A DNA stretch of 64,000 nucleotides. Origin: Escherichia phage mogra. The notes beneath the pieces were generated by a model that was not told where the DNA came from, made no database searches, and saw nothing but the letters and a program-made list of their open reading frames with translations. Shown here piece after piece: positions 33,966 to 57,757 of the stretch. Every line of letters begins with the position of its first letter. Position 1 is the stretch's first letter. The translations under genes were made by a program, and so were the position numbers. The stretch lies in the sequence record MN850579.1, one strand, 5' to 3'.

Positions 33966-34651
<686 letters not shown>

Positions 34652-36370: not shown

Positions 36371-36445
36371 GGCCCTGTAGCTCAATGGGAGAGCTGTCAG
36401 CTCATAACTGATAGGTAGCTGGATCGAAACCAGCCAGGGCCACCA
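36371..36445 (+). tRNA. tRNA with CAU anticodon (Ile2 with lysidine, or Met)
   Basis: Hand-folded cloverleaf: acceptor GGCCCTG/CAGGGCC, D arm GCTC-AATGGGA-GAGC, anticodon loop CTCATAA, T arm GCTGG/CCAGC, encoded CCA. Confidence 0.8.
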
Positions 36446-36545: not shown

Positions 36546-36622
<77 letters not shown>

Positions 36623-44582: not shown

Positions 44583-44815
44583 GTATAGCAATTTACATTA
44601 AATCAGAATCATGTGATAGTTATCTGTACACATACGATAAAGATGTGTCAGAAGAAAAAATCAAAGACGATCTTAATATGGACCTTGATATGTTCTGTCC
44701 TATTGCAGATTACAAACTTGCGGTCTCTAATAGTGAAAGTCCATCTAAAGAAACGCGCATCGAAGAATTTATGTCCGAATTAATGGCCAAATCATGGGAC
44801 CGAGATGATGAGTAA
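44579..44815 (+). CDS. Hypothetical acidic protein
   Basis: 78 aa; ATGA overlap with upstream gene. Confidence 0.55.
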   Translation: MSIAIYIKSESCDSYLYTYDKDVSEEKIKDDLNMDLDMFCPIADYKLAVSNSESPSKETRIEEFMSELMAKSWDRDDE

Positions 44816-45263
44816 GAAAAATAAAGTGAAAGAACTATCAGCCGGTATTATTTTCCTTACCGAAGATAAAGAATTATTCATGGGGCGTGTAACTGGTTCT
44901 TGTCCTAAAGGTTCTTTAGCTCATAGGTGGGATATTCCTAAAGGCCGTGTCGAACCTGGCGAATCTTCTATTGAAGCCGCTATTCGTGAATGCGAAGAAG
45001 AAACTGGGTTTACACAATATGACCCTGCCTTCCTGAAAGACCTAGGTGAACATCGTTACTCAGACAATAAGAATATTCATCTGTTCCTATATGCCATCCC
45101 TGTAGAGCACGAGCAATTCAGAAACAGTGTTTGTAATTCCTATCATACATTCCCAGACGGACGACAGATTCCTGAATTTGATGCATTCGCTTTAATTAAA
45201 CCTTCTCAATGGGAATATGTGATGGGCAAATCATTATATAAGGTGCTCACTACCCTCCTATAA
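44805..45263 (+). CDS. nudE: Nudix hydrolase (NudE / e.1-like)
   Basis: 152 aa; Nudix box GRVEPGESSIEAAIRECEEETG; immediately upstream of endolysin as in T4. Confidence 0.88.
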   Translation: MMSKKNKVKELSAGIIFLTEDKELFMGRVTGSCPKGSLAHRWDIPKGRVEPGESSIEAAIRECEEETGFTQYDPAFLKDLGEHRYSDNKNIHLFLYAIPVEHEQFRNSVCNSYHTFPDGRQIPEFDAFALIKPSQWEYVMGKSLYKVLTTLL

Positions 45264-49116: not shown

Positions 49117-49340
49117 TGGCTAAATTGATTATAGAAGGGTCTGAAGATGTTTTAAAATGTTTTGCCGCCTGGTTTAGTTGCTCAGGCGAGCAATCATTCA
49201 TTGAAGCATTTAGAACGGGTGATATTACTGGAAACTATCCGACAACTGATATCACTGTACGTGGATATGGTATTAATGAGCCTATCCAATTGGTCGAATA
49301 TGACCTTGCCACCGATGAGGAAATTCCTTATGTCGATTGA
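49116..49340 (+). CDS. Hypothetical protein
   Basis: 74 aa, ATGA overlap with upstream gene. Confidence 0.55.
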   Translation: MAKLIIEGSEDVLKCFAAWFSCSGEQSFIEAFRTGDITGNYPTTDITVRGYGINEPIQLVEYDLATDEEIPYVD

Positions 49341-49596
49341 AGACATCAAAGGCTACAAGCCACATACCGACGATAAAATCAGTAAAGTGAACGCTATTAA
49401 AGATGCAGAAGTCCGTCTTGGATTGATGTTTGATGCTCTGATTGAAGAAGCATATATCTTTAAAGAAAATGAAACAGAGCAACAAACCAAAGAAGATATG
49501 GATGCAGTGCAGGCTCTTAAGTATGCTAAGCAACATCTAAAAGAAGCCAGCATGTGGGCATGTCGTGCAGTATTTCGACCTGAGGAAAAATACTAA
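49330..49596 (+). CDS. Hypothetical protein
   Basis: 88 aa from internal Met of ORF-track 49162 ORF. Confidence 0.55.
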
Positions 49597-50961: not shown

Positions 50962-51305
50962 CCAAAATGTTGGCTTTAATAGTTGGCTTGGTTTCATTTA
51001 ACGCTCTTGCTAATACTACATATACTGATGTAACGGAGTATACAAACAGAACGGCGTCTGATTATTGTGGTAAAAGTCAAGAGTGTAAAGTAGATTTTTC
51101 ACAAAAATTGTTATACGCTTATAAAGACGGAGAAAAAGATGGGGCGTCTAGTAGGTTCAAGGCGTCTACCTTAATTAAAAGATACTATAAAAAATGGCAA
51201 ATATTAGAATGCTCGGTGGCGGAACCTAAAGATAAGGCAGCATGCAATTCTATGGTGGACCGTCTAGTTGACTCTTATAATAGAGGACTTGCAGCAAGTG
51301 ATTAA
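50958..51305 (+). CDS. Secreted hypothetical protein
   Basis: 115 aa; signal peptide MTKMLALIVGLVSFNALA; four Cys. Confidence 0.6.
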   Translation: MTKMLALIVGLVSFNALANTTYTDVTEYTNRTASDYCGKSQECKVDFSQKLLYAYKDGEKDGASSRFKASTLIKRYYKKWQILECSVAEPKDKAACNSMVDRLVDSYNRGLAASD

Positions 51306-51765
51306 AAACTATATCAAGGGCGATATTGTCGCCCTGTTTTCTAAAGGTAATAATATTGCTCATGGGTGTAATTGTTTTCATACAATGGGCGCTGGTGTGG
51401 CAGGGCAATTAGCAAAGGCTTATCCAAAAATTCTGGAAGCCGATAAACTTCAAACCGAATTCGGAGACAAGTCTAAACTCGGGACTTATTCGGTTTATGA
51501 AAAATATTTTAAGACCCATAAAGCTTATTGCTTTAATCTTTATACACAGTTTGAGCCGGGACCTAATTTTGAGTACTCTGCTTTAATGAATTGTATAATA
51601 GAATTAAATAAATTCGGAAAGAATAAGATAACAAAGCCTGTAATTTATATGCCAAGAATTGGTGCAGGTATTGGTGGTGGAAACTGGGATGTCATCGAAG
51701 AGATTTTAGATACGTATTCCACTAAACTAGAAATTGTGATTGTTGATTGGGAACCGTTATTATGA
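51298..51765 (+). CDS. Macro-domain protein (ADP-ribose binding / hydrolase fold)
   Basis: GTG start overlapping upstream stop (no in-frame ATG); GDIVALFSKGNNIAHGCNCFHTMGAGVAGQ and IGAGIGGGNWDVI resemble macro glycine loops. Confidence 0.55.
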   Translation: MIKNYIKGDIVALFSKGNNIAHGCNCFHTMGAGVAGQLAKAYPKILEADKLQTEFGDKSKLGTYSVYEKYFKTHKAYCFNLYTQFEPGPNFEYSALMNCIIELNKFGKNKITKPVIYMPRIGAGIGGGNWDVIEEILDTYSTKLEIVIVDWEPLL

Positions 51766-54885: not shown

Positions 54886-55359
54886 ATGATTATCAATGAA
54901 AACTCTTGGCACTTTAAAATTTATGCCGCGTTCAATAGTACATGGAATCGCCCGAAAACGTTGTGTGCTTATTTTTGGAAAACGTTAATCCCGGTATTGG
55001 CTGTTTCAATTATTGGATTTGCGATTTTAGCAGCAGTCACAATCATTGGCCAGGAAATTTTAACTAAATTCTTTGTTTTTAGCAGTCTATGGACATTAGT
55101 TCCGGCCTCAATTGGTGTAGGCATTTTAATTGTAGCAGTCATGGCTTTTATTGCTACAGGGTTAGTAATTGGTCCGTCTTGGCTGTTAGACAAATATAAC
55201 GACAGAAAATATTATAAAGAAATTGAGCTCATTGCGCAAAACCAAGAACGAATTAAAAATGGACTTGAGCCTATTGAACGTAAGAAATCATTAATAGGCG
55301 AATACCTTAAAGCTCGTAAAGAAAAAGTCTGTCCTACTCTTGAATATAAGGCTAAATGA
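54886..55359 (+). CDS. Membrane protein (multi-TM)
   Basis: 157 aa; three hydrophobic helices; basic C-terminal tail. Confidence 0.65.
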   Translation: MIINENSWHFKIYAAFNSTWNRPKTLCAYFWKTLIPVLAVSIIGFAILAAVTIIGQEILTKFFVFSSLWTLVPASIGVGILIVAVMAFIATGLVIGPSWLLDKYNDRKYYKEIELIAQNQERIKNGLEPIERKKSLIGEYLKARKEKVCPTLEYKAK

Positions 55360-56345
55360 TGAAAACAATTATGAAAGGCTACTTTGGTAGCCACCTTTAT
55401 GGAACGTCTACTCCTGAATCTGACGTCGATTTTAAAGAAATTTATGTCCCTCATGCTCGTGATATCTTGACCGGTAACGTTAAAGAACACATGAGCAAGA
55501 ACACGAATAACACATCTTCTAAGAACACAAAAGACGACGTGGACCATGAGTTGTATAGTCTCAAATATTTCTTTAAACTAGCTGCGGATGGTGAAACTGT
55601 CGCATTAGATATGCTTCACACTCCACAAAGTCTAGTAGTTAAATCTGATTTGCCTGATGTATGGAAGTATATTCAAGATAACAGGTCTCGTTTCTATACC
55701 ACTAACATGAAATCTTATTTAGGGTATGTCCGTAAGCAAGCTTCTAAATACGGTGTCAAGGGTTCTCGACTGGCTGTTCTTCGTCAAGCCCTTAAACGTT
55801 CTAATGAATGGGGACAATACTTTGATAATGGCGCAGTAATTCGTTTATCACATATGAAGAATGTTCTGCCTGTAGGTGAATTTGCTTCGTGGGTTGAAAC
55901 TGAAAACGAGAAAACAGGTAAGCAAACATTCTATAATCTGTTGGACCGTAAATTCCAAGACACATTAACCAATAAAGAGTTCAATGCCATCCTGGTTAAA
56001 CTAGAAGAGAACTATGGCGAACGTGCTCGTAAGGCAGAAGCTAACGAAGGTATTGACTGGAAAGCATTGAGTCATGCATGTCGTGGTGGACTTCAATTAT
56101 TGGAAATTTACAAAACCGGCGACCTGGTTTACCCACTTCAGGATGCTCCATTTATTCTCGATGTTAAGCTTGGTAAACATACGTTTAAAACTGTACAAGA
56201 ATTCCTAGAAGATATTGTTGACCAAGTTGAACAAGCATCAGAAAAAGCCGCTAAGAACGGTATGCAACAAAAAGTAGATATGAGTTTCTGGGACGACTTC
56301 CTTGAACAAGTCTATCTCGAAAATCATAATTCTTACTATAAATAA
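55356..56345 (+). CDS. Nucleotidyltransferase-fold protein (pol-beta superfamily)
   Basis: 329 aa; N-terminal GYFGSHLYGTSTPESDVDFKEIYV fits GS...DxD NTase motif. Confidence 0.55.
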   Translation: MMKTIMKGYFGSHLYGTSTPESDVDFKEIYVPHARDILTGNVKEHMSKNTNNTSSKNTKDDVDHELYSLKYFFKLAADGETVALDMLHTPQSLVVKSDLPDVWKYIQDNRSRFYTTNMKSYLGYVRKQASKYGVKGSRLAVLRQALKRSNEWGQYFDNGAVIRLSHMKNVLPVGEFASWVETENEKTGKQTFYNLLDRKFQDTLTNKEFNAILVKLEENYGERARKAEANEGIDWKALSHACRGGLQLLEIYKTGDLVYPLQDAPFILDVKLGKHTFKTVQEFLEDIVDQVEQASEKAAKNGMQQKVDMSFWDDFLEQVYLENHNSYYK

Positions 56346-56376: not shown

Positions 56377-56658
56377 ATGAAAAAATTAGTAATTGGTTTA
56401 TTCGCAGTAATGATGGCATTCTCTGTTGGTGCTACCACAGGTGCAACCGGCGGTAGTGCAGGAGCTGGTGGTAACCAGTCTTCTGGGCCTTCCAATGGTT
56501 CGGTAAATGCATCACATTCTCAGGGTATTGAGAATATCAGATCAAGCTATATTAATAGCACGGCCGGACAAGCAACTGAAGCATGGTCAAAGGGCCGAGT
56601 AGTTACTCGCTCCGTATTCTGTGATATGCCTAATTATGTTGCTAAGTGCGATAAGTAA
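56377..56658 (+). CDS. Secreted Gly/Ser-rich small protein
   Basis: 93 aa; signal peptide MKKLVIGLFAVMMAFSVGA; two C-terminal Cys. Confidence 0.6.
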   Translation: MKKLVIGLFAVMMAFSVGATTGATGGSAGAGGNQSSGPSNGSVNASHSQGIENIRSSYINSTAGQATEAWSKGRVVTRSVFCDMPNYVAKCDK

Positions 56659-56663
56659 ATGTG

Positions 56664-56683
56664 GGGACCTTCGGGTCCCTTTA
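56664..56683 (+). terminator. Terminator-like hairpin
   Basis: GGGACC-TTCG-GGTCCC followed by TTTAGGG (weak T-run). Confidence 0.5.
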
Positions 56684-56710: not shown

Positions 56711-56776
56711 TGTACATGCTTTTAGGATATGTTATTATAGACCTATCGAAACGAAATGAGTAAATTGGAGAATAAA
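56711..56776 (+). promoter_or_regulatory. Early promoter cassette (PeSL-like)
   Basis: TGTACA -35-like, 17-bp spacer, TATTAT -10, leader AAATGAGTAAATTGGAGAATAAAATG. Confidence 0.6.
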
Positions 56777-57757
56777 ATGTTCAACGTTCAAATCAAAAAA
56801 GGTATCTATCGTAATAACGAAATCTCTGGTTCTTATGTTGCCACAAAGACCTGGTTCCCGGCAAAGCTTAATCCTGAATGTTCCCACTTAGGTGATGGTA
56901 AAATTTTCGTTATGATTGATGGTTCTGAACGTGGAGTATGGGTCTTCAAATCAGACATCGTAATGGAAGGAGTTGAGACGTCACCAGTTGCAGTTATTGA
57001 AAGCACTGAAGATATGAAAACTCGTATCAACAAACGCTTTAAAGTAATGAACATGATGACGAATGGCATTATCGATGGCAAAATTCGTTCACTCATTATT
57101 TCAGGTGCAGCTGGTATTGGTAAGACGTATTCTCTGGATAAAGCACTTAATAATGCTAATGATAACGGTTTCATCAAATACAAAAGCATTAATGGTAAAA
57201 TCTCCGGTATTGGCCTTTACGAACAACTTTGGCTCAACCGTGATGCAGACAGCGTTCTCTTAATCGACGACGTTGACGTATTCTCAGATATGGACATCTT
57301 GAACCTTCTTAAAGCAGCATTAGATACCGGCGATAAACGCAAAGTTTGTTGGAGCACTGCGTCATCTTATCTCGAGGATAAGGGTATTGATAAAGAATTT
57401 GAGTTTGAAGGTACTATCGTTTTCATTACAAACGTTGATATCGATAAAGAGTTAGAACGGGGTTCGAAACTTGCTCCACACCTTCAAGCTTTAGTATCTC
57501 GTTCAGTGTATCTCGACCTTGGAGTACACTCTAATGAAGAGATTATGGTTCGAGTTGAAGATGTAATATTATCTACTGACATGATGCAGAAACGTGGCCT
57601 GACGGATGCAGAAACGTACAAAGCATTGTCCTGGATGAAGGCTAATGTATCTCGTCTTCGCAATGTATCATTACGTACCGCTCTTTATGTAGCAGATTTT
57701 ATTTCAACTGATAAAGATGGTTGGGAGGAAATCTCTGAAGTAACTTTACTGAAATAA
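56777..57757 (+). CDS. AAA+ family ATPase
   Basis: About 326 aa from second ATG; Walker A ISGAAGIGKT, Walker B VLLIDDVD, sensor-1-like IVFITN. Confidence 0.7.
   Translation: MFNVQIKKGIYRNNEISGSYVATKTWFPAKLNPECSHLGDGKIFVMIDGSERGVWVFKSDIVMEGVETSPVAVIESTEDMKTRINKRFKVMNMMTNGIIDGKIRSLIISGAAGIGKTYSLDKALNNANDNGFIKYKSINGKISGIGLYEQLWLNRDADSVLLIDDVDVFSDMDILNLLKAALDTGDKRKVCWSTASSYLEDKGIDKEFEFEGTIVFITNVDIDKELERGSKLAPHLQALVSRSVYLDLGVHSNEEIMVRVEDVILSTDMMQKRGLTDAETYKALSWMKANVSRLRNVSLRTALYVADFISTDKDGWEEISEVTLLK

Follow-up and report, generated by a model that had tools for sequence, protein, structure and literature searches.

The protein family PF10127 carries the name RlaP ('RNA repair pathway DNA polymerase beta family'), which PMC12776372 credits to Burroughs and Aravind and which refers to the RNA-ligase operons in which certain members are encoded; only 'some' of the family are described as having an RNA ligase next to them (PMC12776372). 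Two Pseudomonas enzymes, PfRlaP and PaRlaP, were characterised in a December 2025 preprint by Carruthers, Fatma and Huang (PMC12776372). They add 1–2 NMPs (or dNMPs) to an RNA 3′-OH and do not modify DNA or protein, and have a preference for Mn2+ and for the 5′ half of nicked tRNA (PMC12776372). They also partly rescue the aminoacylation of repaired tRNA from which one nucleotide is missing (PMC12776372).

Phage members of the family were predicted by Iyer et al. in 2021 to replace nucleotides lost from RNA ends before ligation, the example of such loss being the wobble base removed by RloC, and were reported to co-distribute with RNA ligases in jumbo phages (PMC7824862). The orthologues of phage T4 nrdC.11 were assigned to the COG3541 nucleotidyltransferases by Nolan et al. 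in 2006 (PMC1524935). In the SSN of the preprint T4 NrdC.11 falls in cluster 5, apart from bacterial RlaP in cluster 1a, and is marked as an RlaP without an assigned function (PMC12776372). The T4 block from nrdC.11 to mobD.3 can be deleted (PMC9825161).

The nrdC.11 locus of an RB69-like phage

The window analysed here is a stretch of 64,000 nucleotides from Escherichia phage mogra (MN850579.1). It belongs to an RB69-like relative of T4: the 3-kb region described below shares 98.5% identity with Escherichia phage vB_EcoM_G2469 and with ~150 other RB69-like phages, and the two relatives whose records were examined are both Mosigvirus (Straboviridae). The region contains the following features.

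54886..55359, + strand: 157-aa membrane protein (phrog_944), upstream context gene
55356..56345, + strand: nrdC.11 orthologue, a 329-aa RlaP-family (PF10127) Pol-beta nucleotidyltransferase, hereafter the NTase
56337..56344, + strand: TATAAATA, a match to the T4 late-promoter consensus, in overlap with the NTase stop codon; the 93-aa ORF begins 33 nt further on
56377..56658, + strand: 93-aa ORF with a signal peptide and a Gly/Ser-rich composition (phrog_2243, function unknown), identified as an ORF with a PHROG match
56663..56680, + strand: GC hairpin GGGGACC-UUCG-GGUCCCU, with a 7-bp stem and a UUCG loop, after the 93-aa ORF
56756..57757, + strand: NrdC.10 orthologue, a P-loop AAA-type ATPase (phrog_1250), downstream of the NTase

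The NTase is 78% identical to T4 NrdC.11 (NP_049709, annotated 'nucleotidyltransferase') over its full length (335 columns). Both genes lie in the same tk–rI–mobD–nrdC early-gene block and both have NrdC.10 downstream. The order on the + strand is regB, vs, tk, rI.1, rI, mobD.x homologues, y05I/MobD.1-like, the membrane protein, the NTase, the 93-aa ORF, NrdC.10, NrdC.9 and NrdC.8, within which the succession tk–rI–mobD.x–nrdC.11–nrdC.10–nrdC.9–nrdC.8 is conserved with T4. Full-length similarity and genomic position together place the NTase in the T4 NrdC.11 orthologous group, and the gene is almost certainly both an NrdC.11 orthologue and an RlaP-family NTase. The preliminary description of this DNA was right to read the protein as an NTase and overlooked this T4 identity.

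The two phages differ on either side of the gene. In T4 the homing endonuclease mobD is directly upstream of nrdC.11, whereas the 157-aa membrane protein takes that place here, and in T4 nrdC.11 and nrdC.10 are not separated by a 93-aa secreted ORF. The proteins themselves diverge strongly in a central segment (residues about 145–215).

The gene is already known. The DNA of the region is matched by 702 phage records, and a protein 100% identical to the NTase is present in NCBI. As a discovery the gene therefore carries little weight, since it is an annotated and widely conserved T4-family gene, found in hundreds of sequenced T4-like phages, that encodes a member of a described enzyme family. 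In many database entries the protein is 328 aa long, having been annotated from the second ATG of the ORF, at 55359. The TGA stop codon of the membrane-protein gene overlaps the NTase ATG (ATGATG, 55356–55359), an arrangement that suggests translational coupling of the two genes.

Catalytic core and C-terminal half of the NTase

The NTase matches the Pfam RlaP profile with 49.2 bits (cutoff 23, E = 7.3e-13). The match runs from residue 7 to residue 137 and covers model positions 23–144 of 249, thus only an N-terminal 122 positions of the profile, to which the canonical 258-aa RlaP that we used for comparison itself scores 3.9e-80. The profile phrog_388 ('nucleotidyltransferase') matches the NTase over its full length (4.5e-126). 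RlaP membership is established for the N-terminal NTase core. In a search of 1.84 billion cluster representatives, 3270 clusters at 50% identity are related to the NTase at E ≤ 1e-3 and 748 at E ≤ 1e-30; the best 150 of the 3270 align across the full length. A precomputed PF10127 label is present on all 120 of the close homologues listed for the NTase.

The following elements of the protein are referred to below.

55386..55430, + strand: NTase signature G11-S12 ... D23-x-D25, in which GS opens helix 12–15 and DxD opens strand 24–31
55524..55550, + strand: third-carboxylate strand N57 ... D61-V-D63-H-E65 (KNT..DVDxE), from conservation, model strand 62–68 and the RlaP alignment
55764..55970, + strand: variable segment, residues 137–205, with a three-stranded beta insertion (177–201), from conservation, the T4 comparison and the model
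56055..56084, + strand: D234-W-K236-A-x-S239-H240-A-x-R243, the most conserved helix, in the C-terminal helical (HEPN/KNTase_C-like) domain

The signature is contained in GYFGSHLYGTSTPESDVDF (residues 8–26), and DDVDHE occupies residues 60–65. A short GS...DxD motif is weak evidence when taken alone, because the pattern G[SG]-x(6-16)-D-x-[DE] occurs nine times in the open frames of at least 80 aa in the window, mostly in structural genes. The profile and structure evidence for the NTase ORF, on the other hand, is far beyond chance.

Conservation was counted in an alignment of 113 representatives with 34–53% identity. Seven residues are invariant (G11, S12, N57, Y132, K236, R243 and G273). D23, D25 and D63 are each present in 112 of the 113 sequences, D61 in 109 and E65 in 81. 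When the NTase profile is compared with the canonical 258-aa RlaP using hhalign, the GS, DxD and KN..DxD elements align with GS, DFD and KN..DLD, respectively (E = 2e-5).

A structure model obtained with AlphaFold2 from the 113-sequence alignment has a pLDDT of 94.2 and a pTM of 0.85; a single-sequence prediction reached a pLDDT of 39, and the alignment-based model is used throughout. Its N-terminal elements are strand 3–10, the GS helix (12–15) and strands 24–31, 45–49 and 62–68, with strand 24–31 starting at the DxD and strand 62–68 at D63. The GS and the three aspartates fall on the canonical beta-alpha-beta core of the model, which continues with helices, the three-stranded insertion and a C-terminal helical bundle. 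The NTase is thus confidently predicted to consist of two domains, a Pol-beta NTase core and a C-terminal helical bundle, and it has an intact two-metal catalytic triad (D23/D25/D63) behind the G11–S12 helix. At E ≤ 1e-3 the model matches 34 predicted viral 'nucleotidyltransferase' structures. Searches of the sequences of solved structures with the NTase and with the 113-sequence profile returned spurious matches only (E > 0.1).

These results agree closely with what had been proposed from the letters of the DNA. The 329-aa ORF, its GS...DVD motif and the DDVDHE patch have exactly the coordinates and residues given in the preliminary description. The NTase fold proposed there, for which profile and structure comparison had been suggested as the check, is supported by Pfam RlaP, phrog_388 and the Pol-beta core of the AlphaFold2 model. 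DDVDHE had been put forward as a possible source of the third carboxylate, and D63 fills that role, being kept in 112 of 113 sequences, located on a predicted beta-strand and aligned with the DLD of canonical RlaP.

The NTase and the bacterial RlaPs PfRlaP and PaRlaP share the GS / DxD / KN..DxD core, an above-threshold match to PF10127 and, going by the model, the layout of an N-terminal NTase domain followed by a C-terminal helical domain. Unlike those proteins, the NTase has a C-terminal half without detectable sequence similarity to canonical RlaP (no significant similarity by hhalign, probability 1.2%). It is also ~70–80 aa longer than canonical RlaPs and carries a variable beta insertion, and its substrate could therefore differ from theirs.

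Residues 137–205, which separate the NTase core from the conserved C-terminal helices, are less conserved across the family than any other segment, with a mean top-residue frequency of 0.29–0.34 compared with 0.57–0.66 in the conserved blocks, and they are also where the NTase departs most from T4 NrdC.11. This segment may be a module for specificity or for an arms race. The residues of the D234–R243 helix are candidates for binding NTP or RNA. Tyr132 (window 55749–55751), which is found in all 113 sequences, is located in a K-Y-G-x-K-G-S-R loop that is modelled with lower confidence.

Neighbouring genes and the loci of relatives

The 93-aa ORF starts with a signal-like segment, MKKLVIGLFAVMMAFSVGA, and continues with a Gly/Ser-rich stretch. 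Its match to a YbgS-like Pfam family is sub-threshold (E = 0.0058). The protein has two C-terminal cysteines, and its Gly-rich part varies in length among phages. No more than 102 phage records contain such an ORF, and nearly all of these are from Escherichia/Shigella phages, which are Mosigvirus where the taxonomy was checked.

The late-promoter consensus is matched 15 times in the window against 8.4 expected, and five of the 15 matches are on the + strand. In the relative OL960576 (~98% identical) a late promoter is annotated at the TATAAATA site, which here is a consensus match only. With TATAAATA upstream, expression of the 93-aa ORF may be late and separate from that of the early/middle NTase. 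The site of the hairpin is a rho-independent terminator in the OL960576 annotation; the hairpin has a short U-tract and a folding energy that is unexceptional relative to shuffled sequences (z = -1.0). It is probably a terminator or an RNA-stabilising hairpin that ends the unit.

The signal-peptide, Gly-rich ORF and the GC hairpin are thus present downstream of the NTase as first described. A functional link between the NTase and the secreted peptide is not supported: the peptide is absent from T4 and from a locus (L007) whose NTase is 97% identical, it is found in 102 records compared with 702 for the region, and it has its own late-promoter-like TATAAATA. The 93-aa ORF is a lineage-restricted (Mosigvirus) insert that is unrelated to NTase function.

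Clustering of 1920 neighbouring ORFs from 83 NTase loci recovered T4-like synteny only (rI, tk, the membrane protein and NrdC.10), and RNA-repair genes were not found among the clusters. Neither the window nor any of the 83 loci has an RNA ligase within ±5 kb of the NTase. The gene is therefore not beside RtcB or another RNA ligase, unlike the RlaPs of RNA-ligase operons; pnk and RNA ligase A are ~80 kb from the NTase gene in a ~98% identical relative genome. A homologue of the membrane protein is found upstream of the NTase in 50 of the 83 loci and NrdC.10 downstream in 39, every one of the latter with T4-like synteny. Because this co-occurrence is all within T4-like synteny, we claim no functional link between the NTase and either neighbour. 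The NrdC.10 orthologue shows weak AAA_22/AAA_16/nSTAND matches and a weak C-terminal HTH_37-like match, and in several T4-like lineages it is better conserved than the NTase, being 57–82% identical where the NTase is 50–70% identical.

Three further arrangements were seen among the relatives. In a metagenomic contig (L091, 80–1866) a canonical 258-aa RlaP lies directly upstream of, and overlaps, a 337-aa paralogue of the T4-type clade, and canonical and T4-type RlaP can therefore coexist in tandem. In a distant phage-like contig (L088, 8001–14980; also L089) a T4-type RlaP is immediately followed by a 334-aa 'AcrVA2-like' protein (PF26125, precomputed), and a PolyA_pol+HD (CCA-adding-type) gene is found ~5 kb beyond the pair. 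We considered whether NrdC.10 corresponds to this AcrVA2-like protein and rejected the idea, as the two have no similarity. In a locus whose neighbourhood is unlike that of T4 (L005, 3368–6284), the genes after the RlaP encode a small metallophosphoesterase and a DEAD/ResIII helicase that has a zinc ribbon.

A proposed role in RNA repair and its alternatives

We consider it probable, at moderate confidence, that the NTase takes part in RNA repair together with the phage Pnk and RNA ligase 1. By analogy with the biochemistry of two bacterial RlaPs (PMC12776372), the NTase would bind NTP with Mn2+/Mg2+ and move 1–2 NMPs, without a template, onto an RNA 3′-OH, with a preference for broken tRNA-like substrates. 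Early in infection it would restore the nucleotides trimmed from cleaved tRNA by RloC-type host anticodon nucleases. The phage polynucleotide kinase/phosphatase and RNA ligase 1, ~80 kb away, would then reseal a functional tRNA, and the NTase would be a dispensable counter-defence accessory. If the NTase does restore the nucleotides that RloC removes, it would complete the classic T4 Pnk/Rnl1 tRNA-repair story; a repair role, if true, would also explain how phages answer 'smart' anticodon nucleases, a defence that has been thought repair-proof. Of practical value are the dispensability of nrdC.11, the genetic tractability of the phage and the intact active site.

The chemistry of the RlaP family would be the same if the NTase acted on RNA 3′ ends for a purpose other than the repair of breaks, by repairing or altering the tRNA 3′-CCA or by tailing host or phage RNAs for stability. 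The lack of RNA-ligase adjacency in the 83 loci is consistent with such a role, and the T4-type-clade RlaP that lies ~5 kb from a PolyA_pol+HD gene in the distant contig suggests tRNA-end maintenance modules. We nevertheless regard it as unlikely. The NTase has no Pfam match to a CCA-adding or poly(A) polymerase family (PF01743 is absent from its Pfam matches at E ≤ 1), and the RlaPs that have been characterised do not go beyond 1–2 additions, discriminate little among NTPs and act on the 5′ half of nicked tRNA in preference to the acceptor end. Improbable in our view is an activity like that of KNTase/ANT or MntA, with a protein or small molecule as the acceptor of the nucleotide, for example an AMPylation that neutralises a host HEPN-type toxin. 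Kanamycin nucleotidyltransferase/ANT(4′) and LinB, enzymes that modify antibiotics, are the top Foldseek PDB matches and combine an NTase core with a helical substrate-binding domain, as is the case here, but these are fold-level matches only, with TM-scores of 0.26–0.33 and ~10% identity (9–11%), and nothing seen in the phage points to an antibiotic substrate. The minimal NTase and MntA antitoxin profiles score well short of their thresholds (NTP_transf_2, PF01909, 13.4 bits against 21; NCBIfam NF047752, 12.9 against 60), and bacterial RlaPs do not label E. coli proteins (PMC12776372).

The best structural match of the NTase is Hailong HalB (PDB 9dbh), a host-defence protein that carries out protein-primed synthesis of poly/oligo-dA and has the HalA channel as its partner. 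A tyrosine is the reported priming residue of HalB, and the NTase has the invariant Tyr132 in a flexible loop. The phage protein might be a HalB-like template-independent oligonucleotide synthase whose oligo(d)N product imitates or tops up a host guard signal, for example the Hailong oligo-dA, and the guard oligonucleotide would keep an abortive-infection effector off. The two proteins are, however, only 16% identical and differ in length (217 aa against 329 aa), the NTase has neither a sequence-family (Pfam) nor a PADLOC match to HalB, and no HalA partner accompanies it, and we judge this activity very improbable. That the T4-type RlaP clade, with its clade-specific variable beta insertion, consists of HalB-like, possibly Tyr132-primed oligonucleotide synthases with an anti-Hailong-type counter-defence function, rather than simple RNA-repair helpers, seems exceedingly improbable; nothing specific speaks in its favour. 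The preliminary description had suggested nucleotide-based signalling or tRNA-end chemistry, and of these the second, RNA-directed half points to the right general area. An enzyme of the CD-NTase/cGAS-like type, producing cyclic (oligo)nucleotide signals, would account for the generic GS...DxD motif and would sit in a window with anti-CBASS genes (Acb1 and Acb2/Tad1-like) elsewhere; the NTase has no Pfam or PADLOC match to the CD-NTases, and no cGAS/DncV-like structure is among the top 50–60 fold matches of its model. We give this possibility almost no credence, and at the family level it is effectively refuted. The kinship with CD-NTase, CCA-adding and MNT enzymes that had been read from the signature was tested for each in turn and found no backing in Pfam, NCBIfam, PADLOC or the fold matches.

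The gene had also been presented as one of two divergent NTases that made nucleotide chemistry a recurring theme of this phage. We searched + strand ORFs of at least 120 aa between 31 and 64 kb with Pfam (~35 ORFs) or PHROGs (~15 ORFs), scanned the open frames of at least 80 aa with the motif pattern, and compared two unannotated ORFs with the PDB using phmmer. None of these searches revealed a second Pol-beta-type NTase, and the recurring theme is accordingly without basis in the ORFs scanned. The real nucleotide-signalling content of the window is made up of counter-defence genes of a different sort.

34196–34651: Acb1 (PF23474), anti-CBASS, 1.3e-58
44805–45263: Nudix hydrolase
49162–49596: Acb2/Tad1-hairpin-domain protein (PF24729), anti-CBASS, 2.9e-17
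51268–51765: macro-domain protein

The window also contains two phage tRNA genes, tRNA-Met(CAT) at 36371–36445 and tRNA-Arg(TCT) at 36546–36622.
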